Below are positions 13,463 to 46,649 of a stretch of 64,000 nt of DNA, one piece after another. The DNA lies in NCBI GenBank assembly GCA_024679065.1, contig JAGIQG010000014.1, forward strand, positions 6,882,001 to 6,946,000, in the 5' to 3' direction. A program made the position numbers and the translations under genes. The notes beneath the pieces are model-generated. The model worked only from the letters and a program-made list of their open reading frames with translations, had not been told where the DNA came from and did not search any database. Each line of letters opens with the position of its first letter. Positions within the stretch are counted from its first letter, which is position 1. The DNA comes from Sphyrna mokarran (lineage: Eukaryota).

Positions 13463-13541
13463 ACACCAGGTTAAAGGCGAACACGTTTATTTGGTAGTAA
13501 ACGCCACTAGCGTTCCGGGCTCTGTCCCTTCGTCAGGTGAG
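13463..13541 (-). mobile_element. Penelope-like pLTR fragment in gene 2 3' UTR with mutated minimal hammerhead (13505-13539) and AATAAA (13486-13491)
   Basis: Minus strand CAC-CTGACGA-agggacagagcccg-GAAC-GC-TA-GTG...CAAATAAAC. Homologous to the GIY-YIG-linked element at 50888-51328. Confidence 0.8.
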
Positions 13542-13671
13542 TTCACCAATGGTTCTGTAGTTGGCATCAGAAGATAAAACGAAGTGTGGAACAGTGTTTC
13601 TGATGTCCGTTATTTAAAGAGACACCACTTATTTTTGTGGCAGGAAGGCCGGCATTCAAATGTGTGCTTCA

Positions 13672-14603
13672 CTATTGCCTGAACAAGAATACTAGATTTA
13701 ACTTTGCCCATTTTTGCAACTTCAGAATTATTCTCCAAGGAGATTTCACGACCTTCTGCAAATCTTCCCTGAATTTAGCTTGTGTAGCTCCATAAATGAA
13801 CGTGTTTGTGCATGAACTTAAATGGATAAGCATTGTTCCGGATTCAATGGCAATATATTCAGGGGATGTGTAATCCGCTCGGACATGAACGACCATCCCA
13901 CTGGCTAAATCACTAACGGCTCTTGTCAGCCACAACAACAGAAAACTACTAGAAATGGTGAACAACAAAATAATAGATTTCCTTCGGTTGTGTATCTCTG
14001 CATCATTCTGATTGTCGCTGCTTTGACCCCGGAGGCAAGCACGGACTTTGCTGGACAAGAAAATCCGTCGGATTGTCAAAAAATTAAATAATAATATCAA
14101 AATGAAGGGAATCCATATCAATAAGATATTTTGTAACCGGCTGAATGCGACACCAGTGTGAGAAATATAAAAAGCCTGGCTGGGGAGTACACCCCATTGA
14201 ACGCCATTTATTTTGCTTCTCTCTTTATATGCAAACCAAATGTACAAGTTCTGTAAATAGACAAGGACCGTGACTGTTGTTAAAACTGCAGCCGCTGTTC
14301 TCGCTGTACAATAGATTGTTTTCAATTTCTGACTACATATCGCAATATATCGGTCAAACGTGAATGAGACTGTAAACCACACTGACATATACAGATTATT
14401 GCAAAGCATATATATCATTAACTTGCAAACAACAGTGTAGGAGAGGAATGAATTAGGGAAACGTTTTCTCAGAAGGTTATACAAAATTACATTGATGAGC
14501 ATCACCAATAAATCTGCTATTGCCATGGCCACCATGTAGATAGAGACACATCTGGAAAGGCCGCAATTTCCTTTGGCGAAGATCACGATGGTCACGAGAT
14601 TCG
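13672..14603 (-). CDS. GPR139-like GPCR gene 2 (short-intron 'B' type), exon 2; full CDS 333 aa
   Basis: Acceptor tttacag|CGAAT at 14604/14603, 932 nt to TAG. Hydrophobic TM segments, FDRY, RRKSIILL, SSCTNTFIY. Confidence 0.93.
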
Positions 14604-15252
14604 CTGTAAAACGAGGGAAAAGAGCCAAGTGATGTAAACAGTCTGGTAACACTCAAAACATACTTTAGCGGAATGTTTGCATGCAGTTTTGCTCAGTTAC
14701 TGTCCTGGCCTTTTTCTATTCTATAAGCGAGAAGAGGTGATATATTTATTGAAGTCGGTCATCATAATTCAATATTTAGGTACCTGCGATGTTGTCCCCA
14801 TTGCAATAATTTGATGGAGTGATGGAATTCACTTCACTTTTCTACACGACGGAATCTCCTAAAGCAGACAGGATGCTCCAGATAATGGGGGACAAAGCAG
14901 GCAATTGGAATGCTATCACGTCCATAGCAGCCGTGAGCAGCATTTACAGGAACTCAGCAGGCACCTTACACATACAGAAATCGCATACCGATCTATGAAC
15001 TGGTGGAAGGTCAGAGAATCAACCTCGATCTCCGTAAACGTGAGGATAGAAGTTAAAGTCCAGGTGTCGCATTCTCTAAGCGGAACCGCGGCTCACAGGC
15101 CATGCGAGCCATTGAGACTCTTACTGATATTCAACAATTTAGCTCGGTTGAGAAAAGACATTGCAATAATAATATTCTCACACTCATTGTTGTTGAATCA
15201 GTGTGCATTGAGATCCTCCACAACTATGAGACAACATAGTATATTGACTTAC

Positions 15253-15322
15253 CGGGAGCACCAAAAGCTGCCAGAACAGGATAGAAAAGTTCCTTGATCT
15301 GCAGAATTAATGGGCGAGCCAT
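15253..15322 (-). CDS. GPCR gene 2 exon 1 (MARPLILQIKELFYPVLAAFGAP)
   Basis: ATG at 15322, donor CCG|gtaagt, intron 14604-15252. Confidence 0.9.
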
Positions 15323-17380
15323 TGTGATTTCGAGAAGAATGCAAATATTTCACTAGATGCACCGTTGTATGTAAAATTCGTAATTCTCCCCCTTTTGTAC
15401 TGTAATACGTTCCCCGGGGGTGTGGTGTGGAAATCAGGCTACGCGCTGATTGCGTCAGCAATTATCGTAGAAGGCCCCTTTCCTCTGGAGAGAATCCGGG
15501 TTGGCCAATCGACACACTGTCAGTCCATGAAGCTCAGTCAATTAACATGAGTGATGAGATGGGAATTCCAGAGCACATGTGTTCAGCACTGGTTCCCAGA
15601 ACACGGAATGGGACACCCCCATTGATACAATGTTTGATTCTGCCAGCTTCATCATGCTCTTATTTAAACGCACACATCTGATGCACAGCTTGGATATATT
15701 TCGCTCCGGTTTCCCTAACTTTTCATTTCATGTGTATTATTATACCTAGTGATGACTCGATCATTTTACTTGGGACAATTATGTTACTTTCCTGTGTCTT
15801 TACTACAATCTGAATTGTGGGAACTCAACTATAAATTTACCATTAGTGTTAATCTATCATTATCAATGATAACTGAAATTAAATATGTATGGCCTACTGA
15901 ATCATTACTGGAGGTGATATTATTTCACAGTGTCCCGTGCCAACGCTTGAAACGTTGATTATTTTCGGCATCATTCTTTACCATCCCTCTGACGCATCAG
16001 TCAGCATCTGAGACCCAGCTCTTGCACAGCTTGATGGACACGTTGCATCATTCTGAACGAGTGGCAGCAAGTTACTGCCGGCGATTCATCACAGTTGCAG
16101 CCGAGCTACAAAGAAAATTTCAGAGTGCTTTTTGAAATATTTCACTGACTTTAACTTGATTTTTACCTATTTGAGATTTCAGTCAATCGAGAAGTGACGA
16201 AAATAGTTCCTTGCCGTGTGGACACGATATTTCATCCATTAAAACTGTTTTTGCAGGAGTCTTTCCTGACCACTTGGCAAGTACTTAATTAAACCAAATG
16301 TTTGTTGTTCCTGGACGAGTAATGCCTCCATTTTAAACTCCTCATCCTTACATTCAAATCCGTCATGGCTACGTTGCTGCCCATCTGTATCACGACTTCC
16401 ACCCAAAGATTTGTTATGGTCTCTTATCCTGCCATTTTGGACTTTGCTTGAATTTGACATCCGGGATTTCAACTGATTTGGCTTAAAATTCCAAATCACG
16501 AGTTTATTTTCCCCCGTTCAATTACCGTTCATCTTTGAACACAACTTTGTCGCGAAACCTGATGTCTCTTTCCGTGATCAGAGTCAGAGTTTTAACATGT
16601 TTTCTATTGATAGCTCTCTTAGCAAGAAAGTTGGTTACTTTAATGGCACTTCAATGGCAAGTTGCTCTTCTCACGAAGAATACATATCAATGCTTTGTGA
16701 GCATTGATATGATTTTTTTTAAAATTGTATTTCCATTTCATGCTCTGAAAGAACGGTTACAAGGCATCTATTATAGACGTACCTCCGGGTTATTATTTCG
16801 GGTTACGGAATTAGTGCATGTTAAGGTCTGTTTGAATATTATGCACAGTTCATTGCTACATATCTTCCTCGTTCATTCTTCGCCGACTTCCGTCTAGTTT
16901 TGTATAACATAACTATATGAATCTTAAAAGTCACTCCATATAATACAAATTTGTATTCTCTTTTCCAATATCGAAAATATACCTCGGTGTATTCATTTCC
17001 CACTGCTAAACAGATCAATTTGTTGCTCGAAAGGCACTTTTAATTTTGAATAATATAATTGTAATTGAACCAATTGTTGTGTTATAAATATTTTTTTCTT
17101 CTCCGTTATCGTTTCTGTCAATAAAAATTGTGTTTTACAAATCACTTATTCTACAAAGTTATAAAACAATTCCGTTTCTCTTTCTGAAGTTTTTGTTTTA
17201 AATAAATTGCATATTAATCCTGAAACTGACCCATATGCATGGCCTGCTCTAGACTCTCCTGATTTGATATGACTATTCTTCCCTATTTACTCGGAAAAAG
17301 CGAAGGATGGAAAATGCCACAAAGTGACGAAAAACAATAGTCATAATGCTGACAAGTTTTAGCCTCGTTCTTTTTTGTAG

Positions 17381-17718
17381 TTGGCATAGTGGCATTGTAA
17401 TCCAGTGGTAGAAATTCAGATATCAAAGGTATATCCTGGAGTTCTGGGTGTGAATGATATCAGGATTGCAGAATTACAAATCAATATCTTTTCTTTTCAA
17501 AAATCCTCTAATCAACATGAATAGATTGTCATAAATACATATCTGCTTCACTTCTGCCAATAGGGAAAGAAAGATGCCTCCTCACCTGCTGTCGTCTGCA
17601 TGCCAGTCCAGACATACAGAAACCATTTGACTCTTAACTGCCCTCTGAAGAACGATTTGGGATGAATGGTACATTATGACTTCTCCCAGCAGATTCCCCA
17701 TCCCATAACTGAATAAAA
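17381..17718 (+). mobile_element. Decayed SacSINE1/DeuSINE-like SINE (copy at 41681-42018)
   Basis: tggcatagtgg head, atctgcttcact...tagggaaagaaa, ttgactcttaactgccctctgaa core, catcccataactgaataaaaa tail. Confidence 0.7.
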
Positions 17719-18339
17719 ACTCTTGCTCACCTTCAAATCTGCTCCCACCCCGCCTCAATTACATCATGTCCCTCTTTGCAATGACGTCATGTCCGTTCAC
17801 AACCGCCCAGAGAGCACAAAAGCACACTTCATAAAATTATGCAAATTATCGCTGCTGAACTGCTTTAGTGTTTTTCTTTGAACTTCGAAAAAGCATGCCT
17901 GTAATTGCTGAATTGAAATCGACATTTACCTCGTCTCAGGATGTCAGAATAATATTTTATATTGCGGTCTGTGTCTTGATGTAGCACACATGGAACTTAT
18001 TGATGAGCAACAGAGGGAAAACTCAGTCAATTAATCTCTGAAACACTGAGCAATGTGTTACCGAATAAGCCAATCCTACAGAGGACATAGTTTATTTAGA
18101 TCAGCAATTGAACGTAAAGGAGCAATGTTACTGATTGTGGAACTGTGAGAGTTTATTTTTTGGAATTTGAGGCGAGTATGGGGGTAGTGATTCGAGGGAA
18201 GTGAATAATTAGAGAGTGCAGGATTTTGCAGCTGTCTGCTCAAAGGGGATGGGAAGTGTGTTGTACATGTGCGTGTGGAGAGGGGAGGGGGAGAGGAGGG
18301 GGGCGGGTGGACGATGAAGAGGCCTTCAGTCACAGAGAT

Positions 18340-18550
18340 GCACACCTGGTCGTTGTGGACCAGCAGAGTGCAGGCCCGGGTTCCCGTGGCTTTTCCCTAG
18401 GCTCTGGTAGTCCTCCTAGTGTAGGCCCAGGCTTCTCCGGTGTTTCCCTGTCTCTGGAAGCCCGTCTGGAGGAATCCCCGGCTCTGAGGCTGCAGCGCCC
18501 AATGCTGCTCACATGTGGGCAACTGCTCCGCGTCACTTCCAAACCGGAAT
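18340..18550 (-). promoter_or_regulatory. Paralog of the GC-rich ETS-CRE block, upstream of gene 2
   Basis: gcgtcacttcc at 18530-18540. Candidate donor CCAG|GTGTGC near 18346. Confidence 0.45.
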
Positions 18551-19927
18551 CTCCAGGGTACTAAGAATAGTCAATTATAATGAAATTCAAGAGACTTTAA
18601 AAGAATTAGAATGAAGTTTGAGAAGCATAGAATAAGAGTAAAAGAAAAATTAAAAAGCATGCTCGGCACAGCTTGCAAGAAGTCACCTCGCTTCGGTGCC
18701 AAGTTGGAAGACAGGTATGAGTATGGAATGCTGTATTTTAAAAGAGGTGTGTATCCTCGCACTCGCTCTTGATGCAGTATCTGTCATGGTCATTGATGAG
18801 TTAACGTGACTACCATTCGCTATTTAGTCTGGAAAGGTGAACGAAGAAGGATATCAAAACAGGAAATAAAAGAAAAAACAGTAAGGAAGATTTAAGATAG
18901 TTCTGTTTGCAGTTGACATCGTGGCATTGTAATTCCGAGATAGCAGTTCAGACACCGCTCGTATGGTGTGGATTCTGGGGTAGAAAACCTTCACATTGTG
19001 GAATTTGAAAACAATATTTTCTCCAAAAACTGTATGATGACCATGAATGCATTGTCGTAAACAGCTTTCTAGTTCACATACCACATTACAGAAGGGAACG
19101 TTATCCTCATCTGTTGTGAAGTCCATTCCAACCCATCGCAATCTAGTAGACGGTTAAATGCTCTCTCAGGGACAATATGAGATGAACAGTAAATTATATC
19201 GAGGCCAGTAGTGTCCCCATCCCAGTAATGGATAAAAAGTGTTACCCTTGGTCTACTTAATGAAACTTCGTGTAAATATAACACGAGACTCTAACTGTTG
19301 GGTTTGATGTATGCACTCACTCTTCCTGGTATTACTTTTTTTGCAGCAATGTTGCCCATATGACTCAACATATTTTTGAGCTGTTGTTTAGCGAATCAGC
19401 ATGCAAATTACATGTTGGTTGCTTCATGCTTCGACCAGTAACTATTTCAGCACAGCGTCTGTGGAGTTGATCCTGGAGGCAACATTAAACTGAACGCATT
19501 CATTAACTTTCAGGCAAGCGATTCCAAATAGAGGGGTCCAAGTTGTTTGACTTTTATCTGTCCTGCATTTCCCCTTTCATTGCTACAGCTGCCAAGCTAT
19601 ATAAGAAATCACGTGCTGCTCACTAATGTACAGATACAGCAATCTCCTGGAGGAAGCCATGAATCAACTGGTTAAACTGAACATTTTGACATTCTCCAGA
19701 TTTTGAATAGAAATCAGATCCATGCATATTGATTAATTCTGAACTGGTGATTTCATCTGAGACAAAGTGGAACATAATAGATAAACGGACAGTACTTGGA
19801 TGAACTTGCCGTGTGGATGGAAATGACAACGAATGGAAAGATCGAAGGGATTTTAAACTCTTTCATTTAGCATTAAACAAGGGGGTCGCATGAAGCATCA
19901 GGTGGCACTTGCCGTGTATATTAATAT

Positions 19928-21040
19928 TTGTGGTGTGAGGCTGCCTATGGTCAAATGCGATAGATGTAGAGTAAGGCACCAAATCTTTGTTACAAAACAA
20001 CTACATCACCACGATAAAGGCAGTATCTGATGTAACGCAATTCCTGAATTTAAGAGGAAACCACATTGAACGGTAGAACGTACGATGTGATGCATTACCT
20101 GCAGAGTGAGGCATAAGCCGGTAAGGTACACTTGTTACTTAAGGCGGATCCAACAGTGTTAAAAGATTACTGTGGCGCAAGGTAGAACATGGTGTGTAAG
20201 ACAGTAATTGTGGTGTCAGGCAGTACCTCTGATGTAAGCCACTACCTGTATTGCAAAACGGTACCTGTGCCATTCGTCATTTCTTCTGCGGTGCAAAGCA
20301 GCATGTTTGTTGTGAGGCTGTACAGCTTTGTAAACATGTAGTAGAATGCAGAACCTGCAATGAAAGACACTTTCCACAGTGAGGGCAATTCTTGTGGAGA
20401 AGGCAGTGCAATATCTTGGGTGAAATCATTTCCAGCGGTCAAAGATAGTACCTTTGTTGTAACACAGCAACTACGGTGTAAGGCAGTCGTTGCGGTTTAA
20501 AGTGGTACCTGTGTTATAACCCAGCTCAGAAATTTCAAGGTACTGTGTGAAGTCAGTCAGCACCAGTGAAGATAGTGTCCACGTTGGAAGGCAGCAGCTC
20601 CGGTGTAAGCCAATAGCTGTAGTACAAAGAACAAAGAGCAACACAACACGGGAAACAGGCCCTTCGGCCCAACGAGCCCGCGCCGCCGTCCTAACGTCTT
20701 AATGACATATCCATGACTTTAGGCTATGCCTATTGTGGAAGATTCCCATATAGGTACCAATATAGGGACAATGTGTTGCCCAATCAGCCTAAGAGCACAT
20801 TGTAGTGTGAGGACATGTGGATAGTGCAACACAATATCTCTGGAGCAATCAATACCTGCTGTGTACAGAAGCTCCAGTGATGTAAGATGGAACTTATGAT
20901 GTAAGGAAGTAGCTTCGGTGTAAGAGAGCACTTATGGTGTAACAGCAACTGCAATGCAAGGCATTACTTGCATTTTCCAGAGGCACCTGTGCGAAAATGC
21001 ATGCCAGAAATTTCAAGATGTTTAATGAAGTCGGCCTGAA
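19928..21040. repeat. Degenerate 19-bp minisatellite, interrupted by a SINE
   Basis: attgtggtgtcaggcagta, cctctgatgtaagccacta and similar units. Paralog of 11790-12750. Confidence 0.75.
20624..20800 (-). mobile_element. 5'-truncated V-SINE-like element with CR1-type tail, 6-bp TSD tgtagt (copy at 44929-45112)
   Basis: Minus strand aggctgattgggcaacacattgtccc...gggccgaagggcctgtttcc...(tctttgt)n. tgtagt at 20618-20623 and 20801-20806. Confidence 0.75.
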
Positions 21041-21819
21041 ACGTCTGCTTTGTACATTGAATTTGGTGCAGGGAAGCTTGAGATGTTTCACTCCAGGTAT
21101 GACTTAAATGAACTACTGGTGAGCTGGTCCCATAAAGTCAATTTCAGAAATACAGTTAACACATAGAAAGAAAAGAGCAAATTGAATTTTAGCGATTACA
21201 AACAAAAAGAAACAACCAAGCTTAACAGCAGCTAATAAACCTTAACAGCTCAGCACATCAGGCGTACCAGCATATGCACCCAGTCTCGATTTAGCACAAA
21301 AATTATGTATTCCCAATGAGTTTTCAGCTCGGTAAGGCCTGTGGTAGTTAGTTCTTTGGATGGAGAAAAGAAACACCTGTTTCTCCATTCTGGAACTCAC
21401 AGCACATCGAAGTGGAGATGGTGCCGCTGTTTTCCTCCAGCTTGCAGACTACCAACAGCAAAGCGTTCACTCCAGAAAAGTAAGAAACACTATTTCAAAC
21501 TAGCTGCAGAATTTTTAATAGATCAAAGCGGCAAAATACTCCATCCAGCCTCGAATCCAACCAAAACTAGAAGTGAAAGAATCGGCGAAGAAAAATAAAA
21601 GATATCTCTTTCCTTTTGACCTGTAAACGTTTTCCGCAGCAATTCCAAATTTCCAAAACCTTCAAGAGCGTGCTTTAGGCCCAGATTGAAAATAAACAAA
21701 ATACAAATTAATCATTTGATGACCAATGAAATGACATTACTCAGATGGCCTGGTGCCTGTTTATTATTGCAGGAAACACGATTAAACATACACTTCATAA
21801 AGCATAATAGCGTCACCTC

Positions 21820-22040
21820 TGCAGTGTAAGTCGTTACTTGAGTTCAAAAGCAGTACCTGGTGCATAGTGGTATTTGTGGTGTAACACAGAATTTTTTTGG
21901 TTAAAGGTAACACCTTCGTTGTAAAAGAGTAACCGCGATGTAAAGGATTATCTGGGTCTAAGGCAGTAGTTTTGGAGCTATGCAGTGCGTGGAGTGTAGG
22001 GCAACAACTGTGCTGTAAGGCCGTACCTATGGTGTCAGGA
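21820..22040. repeat. 19-bp minisatellite block downstream of gene 3
   Basis: Paralog of 13245-13462. Confidence 0.7.
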
Positions 22041-22047
22041 AGTAGAC

Positions 22048-22180
22048 ATGATGTGGAGGTGCCGGCGTGGACTGGTTTAAAAACAGTAAGGAGTCTCACA
22101 AATCCAAGTTAAAATCCAATATGTGTATTTAGTAGTAAAGGACACGATATTTGGGACTCTGTCTCTTCGTCAGTTGAGTT
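22048..22180 (-). mobile_element. Penelope-like pLTR fragment in gene 3 3' UTR with degenerate hammerhead (22143-22176)
   Basis: Minus strand CAA-CTGACGA-agagacagagtccc-AAAT-atc-GTG. AATAAA has become AATACA. Confidence 0.75.
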
Positions 22181-22318
22181 CACCAACGATTCAGTACTAG
22201 CGTCAGAAGATAGAACAAAGAGTGGAATAATGCTTCCACTAAAAGAGACGCGTTACATTGTTTGTGTCAGGAAGGCCAGCATTCAAACTTGTACTTCACT
22301 ATTGCCTGAACAGGGAGA

Positions 22319-23226
22319 CTAATTTAATTTTACATACTTTTGCAACATCAGAATTATTCTCCAAGGAGATTTCACGTTCTGCAGCTCGTTCCTGGATTTA
22401 GCTGGTGTAACTGCATAAATACACGTGTTTGTGCATGAACTTAAATGCATGAGCATTGTTCCGGTTACAATAGCGATATATTCAGGAGATGTATAATTCC
22501 GCCGGATCTGAGCGACCATCCCACTGACTAAAAAGCTAACGACTCTTGTCAGCCACAGCAGTAGAAAGCTACTAGAAATAGTGAACAATAAAATAATAGA
22601 CTTCCTTCGGTTCTGTATCTCTGGATCATTCTGATTCTCGCTGCTTTGTCCCTGGAGGCCCGCACGGGATTTGCTGGACGACAAAATCCGTCTGATTGTC
22701 AAAAAATTTAATACTAATATCAAAATGAAGGGAATCCATGTCAATAAGATACTTTGTAACCAACTGAATGCTACACCAATGTGAGAAGTATAAAAAGCCT
22801 GTCCAGGGAGGACACCCCATTGAACACCATTTATTCTGCTTCGCTCTTCATATGCAAACCAAATGTACAAGTTGTGTAAAGAGGTAAGGACTGTGACTGT
22901 TGTTAAAACTGCAGCCGCTGTTCTCGCTGTGCAATACGTTGTTTTAAACTTCTGACTGCATATAGCAATATATCGGTCAAACGTGAATGAAACTGTAAAC
23001 CACACTGACATATACAGGTTATTACAAAGCATATATATCATTAACTTGCAAACAACAGTGTAGGAGAGGAATGAATTAGGAAAACGTTTTGTCAAAACGT
23101 TATACAAAATTACATTGATGAGCATCACCAACAAATCTGCTGTTGCCCTGGCCACCATGTAGATAGAGACACATCTGGAAAGGCCGCAATTTCCTTTGGC
23201 GAGAATCACGATGGTCACGAGATTTG
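22319..23226 (-). CDS. GPR139-like GPCR gene 3 (A type), exon 2; CDS 325 aa, C-terminus shortened
   Basis: Acceptor ttacag|CAAAT at 23227/23226. Open to TAG at 22319, which arises from a 1-nt loss relative to paralogs. Confidence 0.88.
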
Positions 23227-23523
23227 CTGTAAGAACGAGAGAGAAGAGCCAAGTAACGGAAATAATCTGCTGACAGAGAAAGCATGCGTACACTTTCGCT
23301 CAGTTTTTCGCACGGAGACATTCTATTGAACAAGTGAGCGGAGGCGATGTATTTATTGAAATAGACATCATAAAATCAATATTTAGGCACCGGAATATTT
23401 TCCCCATTGCAATAATTTAAGTGTAATCATTTCCACATGTTGAGGGAAGGGTTGCCCAATTCCATCTACAGAATGTTAATGCGATGTTACCCTCAGCACC
23501 ATCGACAACAAAAAAAAAGTCTC

Positions 23524-24865
23524 ATAGAACATAGAACAATACAGCACAGAACAGGCCCTTCGGCCTTCGATGTTGTGCCGACCAAAATAAAAAGCAATGC
23601 CCCTCCAAACTAAACCATTCCCTTCCCTTCCATATACTTATCAACTAACCTCTTAAACGCCACCAAACTTGGCGCATCTACAACAGCTGCCGGCAGGGCA
23701 TTCCACTCCCTAATCACTCTTTGCGTAAAGAACCTACCTCTGATATCCGTCCTATAACTCATACCCCTTAATTTAAAGCTGTGTCCCCTCTTGCTAGCTT
23801 TCTCCATCCTAGGAAAAAGGCTATCACTGTCCACCCTATCTAAACCTCTAATCCTCTTATATGCTTCAATAAGCTCCCCTCTTAGCCGCCTCCTTTCTAA
23901 CGAAAACAACCTCAAATCCTTCAACCTCTCTTCATAGGACCTGCCCTCCATACCAGGCAACATCCTGGTAACCTCCTCTGTACCCTCTCCAATGCCTCCA
24001 CATCTTTCTTATAATGTGGCGACCAGAACTGCACACAATACTCCAAGTGCGGCCGCACTAAAGTTTTGTACAGCTGCAACATGATGCTGCGGCTCCTAAA
24101 TTCAATCCCCCTACCACTAAAAGCTAAGACTCCATAAGCCTTCTTAACAACTTTATCCACTTGACTGCCTACTTTCAGGGATCTATTGACACATACACCT
24201 AGATCCTTCTGTTCCTCAACACTATTAAGAGCCCTACCATTAGCCCTATACTCTACACATTTATTGTTCCTGCCAAAGTGCATTACCTCACACTTTTCCA
24301 CATTAAACTCCATTTGCCACCTCTCGGCCCAGCTCTGCGACTTGTCCAAGTCACTCTGTAAACTATAACATCCCTCTTCACTATCTACCACTCCACCAAC
24401 TTTCGTATCATCTGCAAATTTACTGATCCATCCCTCAATACCCTCATCCAGATCATTTATAAAAATTACAACAGCAGGGGCCCCAAAACAGACCCCTGAG
24501 GCACACCACTTGTCACCGAACTCCACGATGAATATCTCCCATCAACCACCACCCTCTGTCTTCTATCTGCCAGCCAATTCCTAATCCAATTAGCTAAATC
24601 ACCCTCTATTCCACACATCTGCATTTTCTGTAGAAGTCTTCCATGGGCCACCTTATCAACCGCCTTACTAAAGTCCATATATACTACATCAACCGCCTTA
24701 CCCCCATCCACCTCTCTGGTCACTTTCTCAAACAACTCAATGAGGTTAGTAAGGCATGACCTACCCTTCACGAAACCATGCTGACTATCCCCAATCAATT
24801 CATTTCTCTCTAAATAACTATAAATCCTATCCCTAATAATTCTCTCCAATACCTTGCCCACAACA
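23524..24865 (-). mobile_element. Young 5'-truncated CR1 (RT C-terminal half) in intron of gene 3
   Basis: [40 protein letters not shown], catagaac tail. Short TSD tctca. Empty site at 1094-1110. Confidence 0.95.
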
Positions 24866-25119
24866 AGGTATTGATCTCAAATGAGATCAATTATGATTTC
24901 GGAGAACTTAATTAAACCGGTGATCTGGGATTAGCTTCCTTGCATCTATTTCGAGTTAATTATAATAAGCAGTACCCCTGGCACTGGTCTGAAACTGCAT
25001 TCACCCTAAGTCGAAATCACACCTCGTACTGCATGCCCTGAGGGAAATCCTCAGAAAGAAAATTTCGGTTTCCTCAATAAATTGTAGTTTTATCATTTCC
25101 TCAGTGACTGTCCCAGGCT

Positions 25120-26920: not shown

Positions 26921-26990
26921 CGGGAGCACCAAAAGTTGCCAGCACTGGATAGAAAATTTCCTTGATCTGTAGAATTAATGGGAAGGCCAT
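26921..26990 (-). CDS. GPCR gene 3 exon 1 (MAFPLILQIKEIFYPVLATFGAP)
   Basis: ATG at 26990, donor CCG|gtaagt at 26920, intron 23227-26920. Confidence 0.9.
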
Positions 26991-33966: not shown

Positions 33967-34003
<37 letters not shown>

Positions 34004-36610: not shown

Positions 36611-37339
36611 TCATATGCTTTGCACATTGAATTTGTCGCAAGTAAACTTGAGATGTTTCACATTTTTGACTTAAATGAACTACTGTGAGATTGTCACAAA
36701 AAGTTAATTTCAGAATACAGACAATACATAGAAAATTAGCAGATTATTTTTTTAGCAATTACGAGCAATAAAAGAAACAACCAAGATGTGAAATAAATCT
36801 TAACAGCTCAATGCATTGTACAAAAGCAATATGCATACCAACATATGCCTCTAGATTCGATTTAAATCAAAAATTACGTTTGCCCAATGAGTTTTCGGTT
36901 CTACAAGGCTTGTGGTTGTTAATTCTAAAGATGCCGCAATTCCAGATTTCCAACAACTCCAAAAGACTGCTTTAGGCCCAGATTAAAAATAAACAAAACA
37001 CAATTTAATCATTTGAGGACCAATTAAATGGCAGTATTCAGACACTTCGGTGTCCGTTTATTACTGCAGAAAACACGATTAAACATACATGTCTTAAATC
37101 ACAGTAGCGCCACTTCTGCAGTGTAGTTACTTGAGGTCCAAAGCAGTGCCTGGTGCAAAGTGGTACCTGTGGTGTAACACAGAATTTTTGCCTCAAGGTA
37201 CCACCTTCGCTGTAAGACAGTAACAACGATGAAAAGGATCATCTGTGTTGTGAGGCAGTAACTGTGAGGCTACGAAATGCTTGCAGTGCAGGGCAGTACC
37301 TGTGCTATGAGGTGTTACCTATGGCGTCAGAAAGTAGAC

Positions 37340-37863
37340 ATGATGTGGAGATGCCGGCATTGGACTGGGGTAAACACAGCAAGAAGTCTCACAACACCAG
37401 GTTAAAGGCAAACACGTTTATTTGGTAGTAAACGCCACTAGAACATAGAACATAGAAAATTACAGCACAGAACAGGCCCTTCGGCCTTCGACGTTGCGCC
37501 GACCAATATAAAAAGCAATGCCCCTCCAAACTAAACCATTCCCTTCTCTTCCATATACTTATCAACTAACCTCTTAAACGCCACCAAACTTGGCGCATCT
37601 ACAACTGCTGCAGGCAGGGCATTCCACTCCCGAACCACCCTTTGGGTAAAGAACCTACCTCTGATATCCGTCCTATAACTATCACCCCTTAATTTAAAGC
37701 TGTGTCCCCTCGTGCTAGCTTTTTCCATCCTAGGAAAAAGGCTATCACTGTCCACCCTATCTAAACCTCTAATCATCTTATATGTTTCGATTAGGTCCCC
37801 TCTTAGCCGCCTCCTTTCTAACGAAAACTAGCGTTCCGAGCTCTGTCCCTTCGTCAGGTGAGA
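37340..37863 (-). mobile_element. Penelope-like pLTR fragment in gene 4 3' UTR, split by a CR1 insertion
   Basis: atgatgtggagatgccggcattggactggggtaaacacag...caacaccaggttaaagg...ccacta[CR1]ctagcgttccgagctctgtcccttcgtcaggtg. Confidence 0.8.
37440..37827 (-). mobile_element. Young 5'-truncated CR1 3' end, TSD ~actag
   Basis: MIRGLDRVDSDSLFP...DKYMEEKGMV, gaacatagaacatagaa tail. Empty site ccactagcgtt at 13504-13514. Confidence 0.93.
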
Positions 37864-37992
37864 TCACCAATGGTTCTGTAGTAGGCATCAGAAGATAAAA
37901 CGGAGTGTGGAACAGTGTTTCTGATGTCCGTTATTTAAAGAGACACCACTTATTTTTGTGGCAGGAAGGCCGGCATTCAATTATGTGCTTCA

Positions 37993-38924
37993 CTATTGCC
38001 TGAACAAGAATATTAGATTTAATTTTGCCCACTTTTGCAACTTCAGAATTATTCTCCAAGGAGATTTCACGACGTTCTGCAAACCTTCCCTGAATTTAGC
38101 TTGTGTAGCTGCATAAATGAACGTGTTTGTGCATGAACTTAAATGGATGAGCATTGTTCCGGATTCAGTGGCAACATATTCAGGGGATGTGTAATCCGCT
38201 CGGACATGAACGACCATCCCACTGGCTACATCACTAACGGCTCTTGTCAGCCACAACAACAGAAAACTACTAGAAATAGTGAACAACAAAATAATAGATT
38301 TCCTTCGGTTCTGTATCTCTGCATCATTCTGATTCTCGCTGCTTTGACCCCGGAGGCCCGCACGGACTTTGCTGGACAAGAAAATCCGTCGGATTGTCAA
38401 AAAATTAAATAATAATATCAAAATGAAGGGAATCCATATCAATAAGATATTTTGTAACCGGCTGAATGCGACACCAGTGTGAGAAATATAAAAAGCCTGG
38501 CTGGGGAGTACACCCCATTGAACGCCATTTATTTTGCTTCTCTCTTTATATGCAAACCAAATGTACAAGTTCTGTAAATAGACAAGGACCGTGACTGTTG
38601 TTAAAACTGCAGCCGCTGTTCTCGTTGTACAATAGATTGTTTTCAATTTCTGACTACATATCGCAATATATCGGTCAAACGTGAATGAGACTGTAAACCA
38701 CACTGACATATACAGATTATTGCAAAGCATATATATCATTAACTTGCAAACAACAGTGTAGGAGAGGAATGAATTAGGGAAACGTTTTCTCAGAAGGTTA
38801 TACAAAATTACATTGATGAGCATCACCAACAAATCTGCTATTGCCATGGCCACCATGTAGATAGAGACACATCTGGAAAGGCCGCAATTTCCTTTGGCGA
38901 AGATCAGGATGGTCACGAGATTCG
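37993..38924 (-). CDS. GPR139-like GPCR gene 4 (B type), exon 2; CDS 333 aa
   Basis: Acceptor tttacag|CGAAT at 38925/38924, 932 nt, near-identical to gene 2. Confidence 0.93.
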
Positions 38925-39571
38925 CTGTAAAACGAGGGAAAAGAGCCAAGTAATGTAAACAGTCTGGTAACACTCAAAACATACTTTAGCGGAATATTTG
39001 CATGCAGTTTTGCTCAGTTATTGTCCTGGTCTGTTTCTATTCTATAAGCGAGAAGAGGTGATATATTTATTGAAGTCGGTCATCATAATTCAATATTTAG
39101 GTATCTGCGATGTTGTCCCCATTGCAATAATTTGATGGAGTGATGAAATTCACTTCACTTTTCTGCACGACGGAATCTCCTAAAGCAGGCAAGATGCTCC
39201 AGACAATGGGGGACAAAGCAGGCAATTGGAATGCTATCATGTCCATAGCAGCCGTGAGCAGCATTTACAGGAACTCAGCAGGCACCTTACGCATACAGAA
39301 ATCGCATACAGATCTATGAACTGGTGGAAGGTCAGAGAATCAACCTCGATCTCCATAAACGTGGGGATGGAAGTTAAACTCCAGGTGTCACACTCTCTAA
39401 GCGGAACCGCGTCTCACAGGCCATGAGAGCCATTGAGACTCTTACTGATATTCAACAATTTTGCTCGGTTGAGAAAAGACATTGCAATAATAATGTTCTC
39501 ACATTCGGTTGTTGAATCAGTGAGCATTGAGATCCTCCACAACTATGAGACAACATAGTATATTGACTTAC

Positions 39572-39641
39572 CGGGAGCACCAAAAGCTGCCAGAACAGGA
39601 TAGAAAAGTTCCTTGATCTGCAGAATTAATGGGCGAGCCAT
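39572..39641 (-). CDS. GPCR gene 4 exon 1 (MARPLILQIKELFYPVLAAFGAP)
   Basis: ATG at 39641, donor CCG|gtaagt. Confidence 0.9.
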
Positions 39642-42600
39642 TGTGATTTCGAGAAGAATGCAAATATTTCACTAGATGCACCGTTGTATGTAAGATTCGT
39701 AATTCTCCCCCTTTTGTACTGTAATACGTTCCCCGGAGGTGTGGTGTGGAAATCAGGCTACGCGCTGATTGCGTCAGCAATTATCGTAGAAGGCCCCTTT
39801 CCTCTGGAGAGAATCCGGGTTGGCCAATCGACACACTGTCAGTCCATGAAGCTCAGTCAATTAACATGAGTGATGAGAAGGGAATTCCAGAGCACATGTG
39901 TTCAACACTGGTTCCCAGAACACGGAATGGGACACCCCCATTGATACAATGTTTGATTCTGCCAGCTTCATCATGCTCTTATTTAAACGCACACATCTGA
40001 TGCACAGCTTGAATATATTTCGCTCCGGTTTCCCTAACTTTTCATTTCATGTGTATTATTATACCTAGTGACGAATCGATCATTTTACTTGGGACAATTA
40101 TGTTACTTTCCTGTGTCTTTACTACAATCTGAATTGTGGGAACTCAACTATAAATTTACCATTAGTGTTAATCTATCATTATCAATGATAACTGAAATTA
40201 AATATGTATGGCCTACTGAATCATTACTGGAGGTGATATTATTTCACAGTGTCCTGTGCCAACGCTTGAAATGTAGATTATTTTCGGCATCATTCTTTAC
40301 CATCCCTCTGACGCATCAGTCAGCATCTGAGACCCAGCGCTTGCACAGCTTGATGGACACGTTGCATCATTCTGAACGAGTGGCAGCAAGTTACTGCTGG
40401 CGATTGATCTCAGTGCAGCCGAGCTACAAAGAAAAAATCAGAGTGCTTTTTGAAATATTTTACTGACCATATCTTGATTTTTACCTATTTGAGATTTCAG
40501 TCAATCATGAAGCGACGAAAATAGTTCCTTGCCATGTGGACACGATATTTCATCCATTAAAACTGTTTTTGCAGGAGTCTTTCCTGACCACTTGGCAAGT
40601 ATTTAATTTAACCAAATGTTTGTTATTCCTGGACGAGTAATGCCTCCATTTTAAACTCCTCATCCTTACATTCAAATCCGTCATGGCTACGTTGCTGCCC
40701 ATCTGTATCACGACTTCCACCCAAAGACTTGTTATGGTCTCTTATCCTGCCATTTTGGACTTTGCTTGAATTTGACATCCGGGATTTCAACTGATTTGGC
40801 TTAAAATTCCAAATCACGAGTTTATTTTCCCCCTTCAATTACCGTTCATCTTTGAACACAACTTTGTCGCGAGACCTGATGTCTCTTTCCGTGATCAGAG
40901 TCAGTGTTTTTATCATGTTTTCTATTGATAGCTCTCTTAGCAAGAAAGTTGGTTACTTTAATGGCACTTCAATGGCAAGTTGCTCTTCTCACGAAGAATA
41001 CATATCAATGCTTTACAATTTTTAAATTGTATTTCCATTTCATGCCCTGAAAGAACGGTTACAAGGCATCTATTATAGACGTACCTCAGGGTTATTATTT
41101 CGGGTTACGTAATTAGTGCACGTTAAGGTCTGTTTGAATATTATGCACAGTTCATTGCTACACATCTTCCTCGTTCATTCTTCGCCGACTTCCGTCTAGT
41201 TTTGTATAACATAACTATATGAATCTTAAAAGTCACTCCATATAATACAAGTATGTATTCTCTTTTCCGATACCAAAAATATACCTCGGTCTATTCACTT
41301 CCCACTGCTAAACAGATCAATTTGTTGCTCGAAAGGCATTTTAATTTTGAATAATATAATTGTAATTCAACCAATTGTTGTGTTATAAATATTTTTTTCT
41401 TCTCCTTTATCGTTTCTGTCAATAAAAATTGTGATTTACAAATCACTTATTCTACAAAGTTATAAAACAATTCCGTTTCTCTTTCTGAAGTTTTTTTTTA
41501 AATAAATTGCATATTAATCCTGAAACTGACCCATATGCATGGCCTGCTCTGGACTCTCCTGATTTGATATGACTATTCTTCCCTATTTACTCGGAAAAAG
41601 CGAACGATGGAAAATGCCACAAAGTGACGAAAAACAATAGTCATAATGCTGACAAGTTTTAGCCTCGTTCTTTTTTGTAGTTGGCATAGTGGCATTGTAA
41701 TCCAGTGGTAGAAATTCAGATATCAAAGGTATATCCTGGAGTTCTGGGTGTGAATGATATCAGGATTGCAGAATTACAAACCAATATCTTTTCTTTTCAA
41801 AAATCCTCTAATCAACATGAATAGATTGTCATAAATACATATCTGCTTCACTTCTGCCAATAGGGAAAGAAAGATGCCTCCTCACCTGCTGTCGTCTGCA
41901 TGCCAGTCCAGACATACAGAAACCATTTGACTCTTAACTGCCCTCTGAAGAACGATTTGGGATGAATGGTACATTATGACTTCTCCCAGCAGATTCCCCA
42001 TCCCATAACTGAATAAAAACTCTTGCTCACCTTCAAATCTGCTCCCACCCCGCCTCAATTTCATCATGTCCGTCTTTGCAATGACGTCATGTCCGTTCAC
42101 AACCGCCCAGAGAGCACAAAAGCACACTTCATAAAATTATGCAAATTCATCGCTGCTGAACTGCTTTAGTGTTTTTCTTTGAACTTCGAAAAAGCATGCC
42201 TGTAATTGCTGAATTGAAATCAACATTTACCTCATCTCAGGATGTCAGAATAATACTTTATATTGCGGTCTGTGTCTTGATGTAGCACATATGGAACTTA
42301 TTGATAAGCAACAGAGGGAAAACTCAGTCAATTAATCTCTGAACCACTGAGCAATGTGTTATCGAATAAGCCAATCCTACAGAGGTCAAAGGTCATTTAG
42401 ATCTGCAATTGAACGTAAAGGAGCAATGTTAGTGATTGTGGGAATGTGAGAGTTTGTTTTTTGGAATTTGAGGCGAGTATGGGGGTAGTGATGCGAGGGA
42501 AGTGAATAATTAGAGAGTGCAGGAGGTTGCAGCTGTCTGCTCAAAGGGGATGGGAAGTGTGTTGTACATGTGCGTGTCGAGAGGGGAGGGGGAGAGGAGG

Positions 42601-44232
42601 GGGGCGGGTGGACGATGAAGAGGCCTTCAGTCTCAGAGATGCAAACCTGGTCGTTGTGGACCAGCAGAGTGCAGGCCCGGGTTCCCGTGGCTTTTCCCTA
42701 GGCTCTGGTAGTCCTCCTAGTGTAGGCCCAGGCTTCTCCGGTGTTTCCCTGTCTCTGGAAGCCCGTCTGGAGGAATCCCCGGCTCTGAGGCTGCAGCGCC
42801 CACTGCTGCTCACATGTGGGCAACTGCTCCGCGTCACTTCCAAACCGGAATCTCCAGGGTACGAAGAATCGTCAACTACAATGAAATTCAAGAGACTTTT
42901 AAAGAATTAGAATGAAGTTTGAGAAGCATAGAATAAGAGTAAAAGAAAAATTAAAAAGCATGCTGGGCACAGCTTGCAAGAAGTCACCTCGTTTCGGTGC
43001 CAAGTTGGAAGACAGATATGAGTATGGAATGCTGTATTTTAAAAGAGGTTGTATGCTAATCCTCGCACTCGCTCTTGATGCAGTATCTGTCATGGTCATT
43101 GATGAGTTAACGTGACTACCGTTCGCTATTTAGTCTGGAAAGGTGAACGAAGAAGGATATCAAAACAGGAAATAAAAGAAAAAACAGTAAGCAAGATTTT
43201 AGATAGTTCTGTTTGCAGTTGACATCGTGGCATTGTAATTCCGAAATAACAATCCAGACACCGCTCGTACGGTGTGGATTCTGGGGTAGAATATCTTCAC
43301 ATTGTGGAATTTGAAAACAATATTTTCTCCAAAAACTGTATGATGACCATGAATGCATGGTCGTAAATAGCTTTCTAGTTCACATACCACATTACAGAAG
43401 GGAACGTTATCCTCATCTGTTGTGAAGTCCATTGCAACCCATCGCAGTCTAGTAGACTGTTAAATGCTCTCTCAGGGACAATATGAGATGAACAGTAAAT
43501 TATATCGAGGCCAGTAGTGTCCCCATCCCAGTAATGGATAAAAAGTGTTACCCTTGGTCTACTTAATGAAACTTCGTGTAAATATAACACGAGACTCTAA
43601 CTGTTGGGTTTGATGTATGCACTCACTCTTCCTGGTATTACTTTTTTTGCAGCAATGTTGCCCATATGACTCAACATATTTTTGAGCTGTTGTTTAGCGA
43701 ATCAGCATGCAAATTACATGTTGGTTGCTTCATGCTTCGACCAGTAACTATTTCAGCACAGCGTCTGTGGAGTTGATCCTGGAGGCAACATTAAACTGAA
43801 CGCATTCATTAACTTTCAGGCAAGCGATTCCAAATAGAGGGGTCCAAGTTGTTTGACTTTTATCTGTCCTGCATTTCCCCTTTCATTGCTACAGCTGCCA
43901 AGCTATATAAGAAATCACGTGCTGCTCACTAATGTACAGATACAGCAATCTCCTGGAGGAAGCCATGAATCAACTGGTTAAACTGCACATTTTGACATTC
44001 TCCAGATTTTGAACAGAAATCAGATCCATGCATATTGACTAATTCTGAACTGGCGATTTCATCTGAGACAAAGTGGAACATAATAGATAAACGGACAGTA
44101 CTTGGATGAACTTGCCGTTGGAGGGAAATGACAAGGAATGGAAAGATCAAAGGGATTTTAAACTCTTTCATTTAACATTAAACAAGGGGGTCGCATGAAG
44201 CATCAGGTGGCACTTGCCGTGTATATTAATAT

Positions 44233-45350
44233 TTGTGGTGTGAGGCTGCCTATGGTCAAATGCGATAGATGTAGAGTAAGGCACCAAATCTTTGTTACAA
44301 AACAACTACATCACCACGATAAAGGCAGTATCTGATGTAACGCAATTCCTGAATTTAAGAGGAAACCACATTGAACGGTAGAACGTACGATGTAATGCAT
44401 TACCTGCAGAGTGAGGCATAAGCAGGTAAGGTACAATTGTTACTTAAGGCGGATCCAACAGTGTTAAAAGATCACTGTGGCGCAAGGTAGAACATGGCGT
44501 GTAAGACAGTAATTGTGGTGTAAGGCAGTACCTCTGATGTAAGCCACTACCTGTATTGCAAAACGGTACCCGTGCCATTCGTCATTTCTTCTGCGGTGCA
44601 AAGCAGCATGTTTGTTGTGAGGCTGTACAGCTTTGTAAACATGTAGTAGAATGCAGAACCTGCAATGAAAGACACTTTCCACAGTGAGGGCAATTCTTGT
44701 GGAGAAGGCAGTGCAATATCTTGGGTGAAATCATTTCTAGCGGTCAAAGATAGTACCTTTGTTGTAACACAGCAACTACGGTATAAGGCAGTCCTTGCGG
44801 TTTAAAGTGGTACCTGTGTTATAACCCAGCTCAGAAATTTCAAGGTATTGTGTGAAGTCAGTCAGCACCAGTGAAGATAGTGTCCACGTTGGAAGGCAGC
44901 AGCTCCGGTGTTAGCCAATAGCTGTAGTACAAAGAACAAAGAACAAAGAACAACACAGCACGGGAAGCAGGCCCTTCGGCCCAACGAGCCCGTGCCGCCG
45001 TCCTAACGTCTTAATGACATATCCATGACTTTAGGCTATGCCTATTGTGGAAGATTCCCATATAGGGACCAATATAGGGACAATTTGTTGCCCAATCAGC
45101 CTAAGAGCACATTGTAGTGTAAGGACATGTGGATAGTGCAACACAATATCTCTGGAGCAATCAGTACCTGCTGTGTACAGAAGCTCCAGTGATGTAAGAT
45201 GGAACTTATGATGTAAGGAAGTAGCTTCGGTGTAAAAGAGCACTTATGGTGTAACAGCAACTGCAATGCAAGGCATTAATTGCATTTTCTAGAGGCACCT
45301 GTGCTAAAATGCATGCCAGAAATTTCAAGATGTTTAATGAAGTCGGTCTG
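44233..45350. repeat. Degenerate 19-bp minisatellite with SINE insertion; a second block lies at ~46165-46385
   Basis: Duplicate of 19928-21040. Confidence 0.75.
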
Positions 45351-46394
45351 AAACGTGTGCTTTGTACATTGAATTTGGCGAAGTGAAGCTTGAGATGTTT
45401 CACTTTGGCTCAGGGAAGCTTTGAGATGTATGACTTAAATAAACTACTGGTGAGCTGGTCCCATAAAGTTAATTTCAGAATACAGTTAACACGTAGAAAG
45501 AGAATAGCAAATTGAATTTTAGCAATTACGAACAATAAAATAAACAACCAAGGTATTATATAAACCTTAACAGCTCAGCACATCAGGCGTACCAGCATAT
45601 GCACCCAGTCTCGATTTAGCACAAAAATTATGTATTCCCAATGAGTTTTCAGCTCTGTAAGGCCTGTGGTTGTTAGTTCTTTGGATGTGGAAAAGAAACA
45701 CCTGTTTCTCCATTCTGGAACTCACAGCACATCGAAGTGGAGATGGTGCCGCTGCTTTCCTCCAGCTTGCAAACCACCAACAGCAAAACGTTCACTCCAG
45801 AAAAGTAAGAAATACTACTTCAAACTAGCTAGCAGAATTTTTAATCAACACAGAGACAAAATAGTGCATCCAGCTTCGAGTCCAAGCAACTTCGTAATAA
45901 ACCCAATTAAAACTAAAAGTGAAAGGATCTTGTGAAGAAAAATAAAAGATATCTCTTTCGTTTGACCTGTAAGTGTTTTTTTCCGCAACAATTCCAAATT
46001 TCCAAAAACTCCAAGAGAGTGCTTTAGGCCCAGATTAAAAAGAAACAAAACACAAATTAATAAGTTGAGGAAAAAATAAATGTCATTATTCAGATGGCCT
46101 GGTGCCTGTTTATTATTGCAGAAAACGCGATTAAACATGCATTTCTTAAAGAATAGTAGCGTCACTTCTGCAGTGTAAGCCGTTGCTTAAGGTCCAAAGC
46201 AGTGCAAAGTGATATCTGTGGTGTAACACAGAATTTCTTTGGTTTAAGGTACCACCTTGGTTGTAAGACAGTAACTGCGATGTAAAAGATTATCTGTGGC
46301 CTAAGGCAGTAGTTTTGGGGCTATGCAGTGCTTGCAGTGTAGGGCAGTACCTGTGCTGTAAGTCGGTAACTATGATGTCAGGAAGTTGACCTAA

Positions 46395-46524
46395 AGTGGA
46401 GATTCCGGCATTGGACTAGTGTAAACACAGTAAGAAGTCTCACAACACCAGGTTAAAGTCAAACATGTTTATTTGGTAGTAAACGCCACCAGCTTTCGGG
46501 ACTCTGTCCTTTCGTCAGGTGAGT
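46395..46524 (-). mobile_element. Penelope-like pLTR fragment in gene 5 3' UTR with hammerhead motif (46487-46521) and AATAAA (46468-46473)
   Basis: Minus strand CAC-CTGACGA-aaggacagagtccc-GAAA-GC-TG-GTG. Core intact, but the cleavage-site base is G. Confidence 0.82.
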
Positions 46525-46649
46525 TCACCAGTGGTTCTGCAGTAGGCATCAGAAGATACAACGAAGAGTGGAACAATGTTTCTCATGTCTGTTATGTAAA
46601 GAGACACCATTTATTTTTGTGGCAGGAAGGCATACAAATGTGTGCTTCA

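Follow-up and report, generated by a model that had tools for sequence, protein, structure and literature searches.

Why should every receptor gene whose 3' end is visible in a shark gene array be followed by a hammerhead ribozyme motif, and why is that motif broken behind each gene? The window, the whole 64-kb stretch of DNA that was analysed, holds five such genes, and an earlier note on it proposed that a Penelope-like element had donated a poly(A) signal together with a self-cleaving motif, which was then disabled in parallel, a pattern that it took to fit selection against mRNA cleavage or a tuning of expression still active in other paralogs, with neutral decay left possible. Our analysis makes it likely that the motifs are mostly neutral retroelement fossils, in which a Penelope end inserted once, was copied by gene duplication and decayed at the rate of its neighbourhood.

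Receptor genes and origin of the hammerhead fragments

All five genes lie on the minus strand and have two coding exons. Exon 2 lies at 1..801 in gene 1 (identified by Pfam 7tm_1 and the exon border, with the 3' end of the gene beyond the window), at 13672..14603 in gene 2, a GPR139-like rhodopsin-family GPCR, at 22319..23226 in gene 3, where one codon is deleted and a 1-nt deletion leads to an earlier stop, and at 37993..38924 and 46650..47581 in genes 4 and 5 (both with Pfam 7tm_1). Exon 1, placed by tblastn with the N-termini of homologs and by an ATG and a GT donor, lies at 3132..3201, 15253..15322, 26921..26990, 39572..39641 and 50645..50714 in genes 1 to 5, respectively. The possibility that these are pseudogenes was rejected: both exons and the splice sites are intact in all five (in gene 1, for the visible part), and dN/dS values of 0.25-0.56 in all ten pairs also count against it. 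A homolog search gave 827 matches, so the family is large and many paralogs lie unseen. The flanks of the paralogs are homologous over kilobases at ~80-98%. Among the papers listed in a literature search on the receptor family, none mentions GPR139.

Behind all four genes with a visible 3' end, hammerhead-like motifs lie on the minus strand at 13505-13539, 22143-22176, 37827-37862 and 46487-46521 (genes 2, 3, 4 and 5), all built from CUGACGA, an A bulge, the hairpin of stem II, a box resembling GAAA, an insert of 2 nt in stem III, U-N and stem I. As the earlier note had described, the motif stands about 130-140 nt past the stop codon (C3 at 135, 145, 135 and 131 nt); its placing of AATAAA about 15 nt after the motif holds for genes 2, 3 and 5, at 16 nt from position 17, but not for gene 4, where the distance is 406 nt. 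The motif is not a product of chance, as judged from nhmmer with the intergenic Penelope copy described below, which recovers the gene copies at E values of 1.4e-15 to 5.4e-5, and from a strict hammerhead descriptor, which gave no match in 60 dinucleotide-matched random windows. An Rfam scan of the whole window (E <= 10) gave six matches with no hammerhead family among them, and so offers no support either way. A GTDB scan with a 22-nt pattern of the Penelope tail gave one match, a GC-rich bacterial chance match without a hammerhead.

The fragments that carry these motifs, all on the minus strand, begin at stem I, contain no ORF and are tied to Penelope through DNA homology. They occupy 13463..13541 in gene 2, where the remainder was lost through a ~63-nt deletion, 22047..22178 in gene 3, 37827..37862 (upstream part) and 37339..37441 (downstream part) in gene 4, and 46390..46523 in gene 5. 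They stand singly, with 9-24 kb between neighbouring gene-linked copies. We considered whether the DNA from stop codon to motif is additional pLTR and rejected this, as it does not match the intergenic pLTR in any of the three genes tested (p 0.55-0.91). Inside the gene 4 hammerhead lies the 3' end of a LINE of the APE/RT type (37442..37826, minus strand), 94% identical to 53018-53406 and 23523-23907, which belong to longer copies with Pfam matches to RT and endonuclease. The earlier note labelled it CR1, which fits the features of that group. It had been placed in stem III; its 5-bp target duplication covers hammerhead positions 16.2-1.2, so that it cuts stem I instead, just past the cleavage site.

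An nhmmer search of the window for further Penelope copies found only five, in six segments. The fifth, overlooked in the earlier note, lies outside any gene 3' flank, upstream of gene 5 (50887..51337, minus strand, 5' boundary approximate), and has the make-up of a Penelope remnant: it is 5'-truncated, and the C-terminal remnant of a GIY-YIG-ending ORF (51215-51328) is followed by a pLTR at 50887-51215 with a hammerhead. The 41-aa ORF remnant has 92% identity with a GIY-YIG (PF01541) protein and 87% with one from Mustelus asterias; by itself it has no Pfam match. By tblastn, only the last 38 residues of the query were matched in this copy (E 5.5e-16), and no RT part was found. The catshark genome paper makes no mention of Penelope. 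The intergenic hammerhead, at 50980-51017 on the minus strand (C3 at 51012), has the full core, the closing pairs and a palindromic 15.1-16.1 segment, is the only strict-descriptor match in the window, and is accompanied by AATAAA at 50963-50968. When 43 nt around it are folded, stems I and II form in the lowest-energy structure (z -1.18), but its pair probabilities in a 200-nt context are low.

Homology of the gene copies to this Penelope end with its GIY-YIG-type protein tail bears out the proposed Penelope origin, and a shared ~134-nt fragment within homologous gene flanks bears out one ancestral insertion. On this homology, the four gene copies are a single ~134-nt insertion that was multiplied by tandem duplication, and the pattern of one motif behind every gene reflects one insertion, not four.

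Lesions and decay of the motif

The minimal type I hammerhead rule, drawn from PMC3088659 and PMC4191386, comprises C3, U4, G5, A6, G8, A9, G12, A13, A14, A15.1 and U16.1, with H at position 17. All gene copies depart from it, genes 2 and 4 by C at 15.1, gene 3 by loss of G12 and gene 5 by G at 17, and none of the four passes the strict descriptor, the sole pass among the five copies being the intergenic one. The GAAC in place of GAAA in genes 2 and 4, the absence of GAAA with AATACA in gene 3 and the cleavage-site G in gene 5, all reported previously, were confirmed. The lesions do differ by lineage, as had been claimed, but no copy has just one. Genes 2 and 4 have their lesions in common, including a G10.1-C11.1 pair broken by G at 11.1 and one further broken pair in stem II; in gene 5 the closing pair 10.1-11.1 is likewise broken, with A at 10.1. 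In gene 3, the most decayed copy, the closing pair 2.1-1.1 is broken, with A at 2.1, and stems II and III are changed. Lesions of the three lineages (genes 2/4, 3 and 5) are thereby concentrated at 10.1-11.1, 12, 15.1, 17 and 2.1; the six invariant CUGA-GA positions are unchanged in all four gene copies, and gene 5 keeps all 11 invariant core bases. The gene 5 motif is predicted to fold stems I and II with a probability of ~0.9 in a 200-nt context. Folding energy sets none of the five motifs apart from shuffled sequences (z -1.18 to 1.19). In homodimer co-folds of the gene copies the active dimer was never the best structure, which we do not count as evidence because energy models ignore the hammerhead core.

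The parsimony or majority state of the three lineages passes the strict descriptor, which supports the earlier view that the motif was intact at the first duplications and was lost in parallel, separately in each lineage. This ancestral state, together with lesions that differ among the lineages, is consistent with a model in which mRNA was cut by the intact motif, upstream of its poly(A) signal, and selection favoured loss of the motif in each lineage; in addition, a depletion of retrozymes in exons is reported for Xenopus (preprint 10.64898/2026.07.22.740005). We nevertheless consider this model improbable, as whole-tree tests were not significant. There were 6-7 critical changes against 3.9 expected at the local rate (p 0.20-0.10) and 11 changes of any kind in the motif against 8 expected (p 0.18), and the placement of changes within the motif gave p 0.13-0.38. 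Each of the three lineages has at least two critical changes, but selection requires only one hit per lineage, for which the neutral probability is 0.2-0.5 (0.19-0.21 at local rates and ~0.5 at synonymous rates). A mild excess of critical hits persists in narrower tests (p 0.01-0.09): without the shared branch, the probability of a total of at least 6 is 0.089 and of at least 7 is 0.038; the two short lineages have 4 critical hits against 1.4 expected (p 0.06); and a post-hoc statistic, that all three lineages are hit at least twice, gives p 0.011. Only three lineages are available and the power of the tests is low, so they fail to reject neutrality but do not prove it.

Identity of the 38-nt motif tracks that of its flanks and is at or below it, being 75.7% between genes 3 and 5 (flanks 78.3% and 80.0%) and 84.2% between genes 4 and 5 (flanks 88.9% and 90.6%). 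Decay about as fast as that of the surrounding DNA makes the motif most likely a fossil, not a control switch, and repeats often harbour cryptic mutant hammerheads (PMC3088659). Selection against cleavage is further opposed by the untouched CUGA-GA positions and by the motif having stayed intact across insertion and first duplication and along the branch of ~5% divergence that genes 2/4 and 5 share. Solo minimal hammerheads are moreover reported to be inactive as monomers (PMC4209133, PMC11167929). Cleavage by a single minimal hammerhead was not detectable and dimers had low activity (PMC4209133), and in the absence of its protein the Poseidon hammerhead of the anole failed to cleave, with no RNA-seq reads ending at its site (PMC11167929). 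There was thus probably little to select against. The in vivo role of Penelope hammerheads is described as still open in the available text of PMC8557442.

In gene 5 the intact intergenic hammerhead precedes the ATG by 298 nt, and the core in the 3' flank is still predicted to fold. A single precursor RNA could therefore contain two motifs that share a palindrome. Such an arrangement, the many unseen paralogs and the Clec2 3' UTR precedent (available text of PMC6765202 and PMC2950038) would suit ribozyme-tuned expression, in which intact copies in other paralogs destabilise mRNAs as in Clec2, perhaps via dimerisation or a Penelope protein. We regard this as extremely unlikely. None of the four gene copies in the window is intact; conservation does not peak at the motif, in which 12-16 of 20 columns are identical three ways against a mean of 15; and Clec2 ribozymes are, in the same available text, full motifs active as monomers. 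The receptor family is also far older than the Penelope insertion, its best outside homolog being 66% identical. It is similarly very improbable that the motif was once a conditional mRNA kill switch in the expanding receptor family, removing the poly(A) tail when joined by a second motif or assisted by Penelope protein, with repeated selected escape and continued use in unseen paralogs or gene 5.

Candidate poly(A) signals

Three kinds of candidate poly(A) signal, all predicted from sequence, lie on the minus strand behind the genes. The Penelope hexamer is a canonical AATAAA in three of the four genes (13486-13491, 37417-37422 and 46468-46473 in genes 2, 4 and 5) and AATACA in gene 3 (22124-22129). 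A distal AATAAA that is not Penelope-derived is intact in all four (13189..13194, 21760..21765, 37057..37062 and 46109..46114 in genes 2 to 5). Gene 5 also has a proximal AATAAA (46610..46615), 35 nt past the stop and upstream of the hammerhead, which reads AATAAG in genes 2 and 4. At +20..70 the distal site has 48-60% U, in contrast to 24-36% at the Penelope site. The neutral probability that the distal AATAAA is kept in all lineages is 0.22, and its conservation is therefore not proof of use. That Penelope donated the poly(A) signal is not supported, since the distal AATAAA is better conserved and U-richer downstream and gene 5 has a further canonical AATAAA upstream. Receptor mRNAs probably end mainly at the distal, non-Penelope AATAAA, the Penelope hexamer serving at most as an alternative.

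An ordinary exaptation, in which some paralogs truly use the Penelope AATAAA as their main or an alternative poly(A) signal and the hammerhead decayed neutrally, is partly compatible with the fossil explanation and is possible, if rather unlikely. GU-rich DNA lies ~20-45 nt past the Penelope AATAAA in genes 4 and 5, and poly(A) sites derived from transposons are a described class, although such sites are less often used (available text of PMC2553571). Retention of the Penelope AATAAA in two lineages (genes 2/4 and 5) has a neutral probability of 0.41, gene 3 has an altered hexamer, gene 2 has lost the DNA downstream of it, and all four genes have a better-looking distal site.

Proposed history and known systems

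We propose that a 5'-truncated Penelope-like element left a pLTR end of ~134 nt, with a minimal type I hammerhead, AATAAA and tail, in sense orientation ~135 nt past the stop codon of a single ancestral GPR139-like gene of elasmobranchs. Gene-plus-flank units would then have duplicated in tandem and exchanged unequally, spreading the fragment to every paralog. A lone copy with a 2-bp palindromic stem III would cleave only with the help of the element's protein or of another hammerhead on that RNA, so that the motif may have had almost no activity even at first. It would since have been eroded at about the neighbourhood rate by substitutions, indels and the insertion of a LINE, and the mRNA would end mainly ~400 nt further on at the distal AATAAA, leaving a dead motif inside the 3' UTR. 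The significance of the locus is most likely minor, as a tidy case in which gene duplications carried along a known retroelement ribozyme. One dated insertion over many paralogs is also a natural experiment on whether genomes actively rid their transcripts of self-cleaving motifs. Should selection or regulation prove true, the motif would match the Clec2 ribozyme as a counterpart of transposon origin, of which our literature search found no case.

Penelope-like elements are not known from mammals. As in the transposon-derived poly(A) sites treated in the available text of Lee, Ji and Tian (2008, PMC2553571), a retroelement end here gives AATAAA downstream of a host gene; unlike those sites, the donor is a Penelope-like element and the signal is putative. 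Mammalian Clec2 hammerheads (Martick et al. 2008) also belong to a tandem gene family and lie between stop codon and poly(A) signal, and are described in the reviews PMC6765202 and PMC2950038 as discontinuous motifs that are active, lowering a reporter by 80%, and conserved between species. In contrast, the shark gene copies are minimal, transposon-derived, broken and conserved no more than their flanks. Penelope-derived non-LTR retrozymes (preprint 10.64898/2026.07.22.740005) are likewise Penelope-related hammerhead repeats that are rare in exons, the exonic ones being mostly in 3' UTRs, but they form tandem arrays whereas the shark gene copies are solitary. The motifs resemble the min-HHR reported by Cervera and de la Pena (2014, PMC4209133) from metazoan Penelope pLTRs in the bulged base between 9 and 10.1, G10.1-C11.1, a 4-5 bp stem I and a palindromic 15.1-16.1 segment, in the position of the pLTR after the end of a GIY-YIG ORF, and in mostly solitary, truncated and highly variable copies. 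Unlike the min-HHR, the gene copies are one old insertion multiplied by host duplication and are all four broken, and it is the intergenic copy at 50980-51017 alone that is a min-HHR by the published definition.

Penelope-derived hammerheads near the receptor genes

The earlier note had placed a minimal type I hammerhead 3' of the stop codons of genes 2 to 5, which are minus-strand GPR139-like receptor genes. This position holds for the copies at 13505-13539, 22143-22176, 37827-37862 and 46487-46521 (C3 at 13536, 22173, 37857 and 46518), with C3 lying 135, 145, 135 and 131 nt past the stops of genes 2, 3, 4 and 5, respectively, but a fifth, intergenic copy at 50980-51017 (C3 at 51012) was overlooked. 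The fifth copy is the sole match in the window to a strict minimal-hammerhead descriptor, which had no match in 60 random windows. Because it is preceded by a 41-codon ORF remnant with 92% identity to a GIY-YIG (PF01541) protein and 87% identity to a Mustelus asterias protein, we assign it to the 3' terminus of a Penelope-like element. Its match to the gene copies (E 1.4e-15 to 5.4e-5) begins at stem I and runs for about 134 nt, as far as the element extends; together with the remnant, this match supports the proposed Penelope origin. The DNA between stop codon and motif in the genes gave no match to the intergenic pLTR. Between the intergenic and gene copies, stem II varies in sequence with pairing kept (at 10.3, for example, G-C is exchanged for C-G), a pattern that a genuine hammerhead family would show. 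All four gene-linked copies occupy one homologous site, which marks them, on sequence grounds, as a single insertion multiplied along with the genes. The gene-linked motif belongs, in decayed form, to the minimal hammerheads of Penelope pLTRs, a described class whose members are reported to occur on a massive scale, mostly as solitary copies with high variability (Cervera and de la Pena 2014, PMC4209133).

The intergenic pLTR (50887-51337, minus strand) is intact, with hammerhead and AATAAA, and lies in sense orientation, 173 nt 5' of the ATG of gene 5 (50714). Genes 1 to 4 share upstream DNA (over 1.2 kb at about 79%); the homology of gene 5 to it ends at the end of the Penelope element and is not seen again within the window, so the element may have replaced the gene 5 promoter. 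A review notes that pLTRs can bear promoters. A tRNA-Thr(AGT) gene (52773-52846, plus strand; Rfam 67.9 bits) lies about 2 kb upstream of gene 5.

The receptor gene cluster

The five rhodopsin-family GPCR genes in the window (exon 2 at 1..801, 13672..14603, 22319..23226, 37993..38924 and 46650..47581) are all on the minus strand, have two exons and carry Pfam 7tm_1; exon 1 was located by tblastn, and ATG, GT and AG are all intact. The closest relatives of gene 5 are elasmobranch proteins labelled 'probable G-protein coupled receptor 139', from a very large two-exon family (827 matches across sharks and rays). The best of these reaches 66% (Heterodontus francisci). These relatives place the DNA in a shark or ray, and genes 1-5 form a young local cluster inside this family. 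All ten gene pairs have a dN/dS of 0.25-0.56 in their coding sequence. Genes 1/3 (lineage A; dS 0.07) and genes 2/4 (lineage B; dS 0.03) are recent duplicates, and dS among these lineages and gene 5 (lineage C) is 0.19-0.26. The flanks are homologous for kilobases and mosaic in identity: across 16.8-21.0 kb, identity to the flank of gene 5 is 95-100%, and it falls to 83-87% near the gene 3 stop. The 3' end of gene 1 lies beyond the window, and the 3' flank comparison covers genes 2-5.

Genes 4 and 5 (37339-37993 and 46390-46650) share 89-91% identity over the stretch that begins at the stop and includes the Penelope tail; past the tail they share 82-84%, and their coding dS is 0.21. Farther downstream the closest pair becomes genes 3 and 5, a switch that points to a tract of conversion or crossover whose limit lies near the Penelope end. 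In gene 3 (22319-22345), one codon is deleted and a further 1-nt deletion gives an earlier stop, with 301 codons in exon 2 vs 309, and the intron (23523-24865) holds a young LINE piece with 97.6% identity to 53023-54362. A search of a literature collection that omits most subscription journals found no paper on the elasmobranch 'GPR139-like' family and none describing a Penelope hammerhead 3' of these receptor genes. The receptor family itself may merit more attention than the ribozyme.

Lesions by lineage and the question of selection

We defined critical positions after Perreault et al. 2011 (PMC3088659) as the 11 invariant bases, H17 and the closing pairs, in standard hammerhead numbering. 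Lineage B has C at 15.1, G at 11.1 and one stem II change. Gene 4 carries a second change in stem II as well as the end of a LINE (385 nt), inserted with a 5-bp target duplication that covers 16.2-1.2; as a result, position 17 and the AATAAA of gene 4 lie 406 nt apart. This LINE, flanked by 37437-37441 and 37827-37831, sits right across the cleavage site; since its repeat tail and the target have bases in common, microhomology would be a sufficient explanation. Gene 2 has lost about 63 nt, beginning 24 nt past its AATAAA. Gene 5 has A at 10.1 and G at 17, a base reported not to be cleaved (PMC4191386). In gene 3, position 2.1 is A, G12 is missing (either deleted, or substituted and the alignment shifted), and stems II, III and I are altered further. 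Each lineage therefore carries at least two critical changes, rather than one. The six invariant CUGA-GA bases are unchanged in all four gene copies. The majority state of the three lineages resolves at every column and satisfies the strict descriptor, which supports the proposal that the motif was intact at duplication and lost in parallel; it stayed intact across the first duplication and the shared B+C branch.

Selection against mRNA cleavage, as had been suggested, fared less well. With local rates from 210 flanking sites and hand-entered counts (A 0.115, B 0.048, C 0.048, shared B+C branch 0.055) and 14.7 effective critical sites, the neutral probability that all three lineages are changed at critical sites is 0.19-0.21, and about 0.5 at synonymous rates, which predate a small dS correction. 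Over the whole tree, 6-7 critical changes were observed vs 3.9 expected (p 0.20-0.10); they do not make up an unusual fraction of the 12-13 changes in the motif (p 0.13-0.38), and motif changes of all kinds number 11 vs 8 expected (p 0.18). Narrower tests count against the neutral reading: with the shared branch excluded, P(>=6) is 0.089 and P(>=7) 0.038; lineages B and C have 4 critical changes vs 1.4 expected (p 0.06); and p is 0.011 for the post-hoc statistic that every lineage is hit at least twice. We regard this excess as a weak hint of selection, because silencing by selection needs one change only and small hairpins are mutation-prone. Since three lineages give little power, neutral decay is unrejected rather than proven.

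Poly(A) signals, cleavage and known systems

Three candidate poly(A) signals lie 3' of the genes. The proximal hexamer, 35-39 nt past the stop, is canonical in gene 5 only, there upstream of the hammerhead. The Penelope AATAAA is canonical in three of four genes, with 24-36% U at +20..70, and the distal AATAAA, which lies outside the Penelope fragment and some 400 nt beyond C3 in uninterrupted copies, is canonical in all four, with 48-60% U downstream. Retention of neither beats chance (0.41 for the Penelope signal in B and C, 0.22 for the distal one). The distal signal appears the better bet; were it in use, the dead motif would lie inside the UTR, yet the proposed donation of the poly(A) signal by Penelope would fall. 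Poly(A) sites that derive from transposons are already documented as a class (PMC2553571). Degenerate repeats of about 24 nt occupy 46213-46371, in the stretch that separates the distal AATAAA from the end of the Penelope fragment.

Cleavage of a single minimal hammerhead is reported as undetectable and that of dimers as low (Cervera and de la Pena 2014, PMC4209133). The anole Poseidon hammerhead cleaved only with the element's protein, and no RNA-seq reads ended at its site (Frangieh et al. 2024, PMC11167929). A 2026 preprint (10.64898/2026.07.22.740005) describes cleavage in one of nine dimers, and few exonic retrozymes, tending toward 3' UTRs (its Table 4 gives 3' UTR overlaps). As published solo motifs are inactive or protein-dependent, a lone copy in a shark mRNA was probably near-silent. 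That the Penelope hammerhead was once a conditional mRNA cutter, which paralogs escaped repeatedly under selection and some still use, strikes us as very improbable. The gene-linked shark motifs resemble the Clec2 3' UTR ribozyme, as described in PMC6765202 and PMC2950038, in position only, because, unlike that ribozyme, each of the four gene copies is broken and is no more conserved than its flanks.
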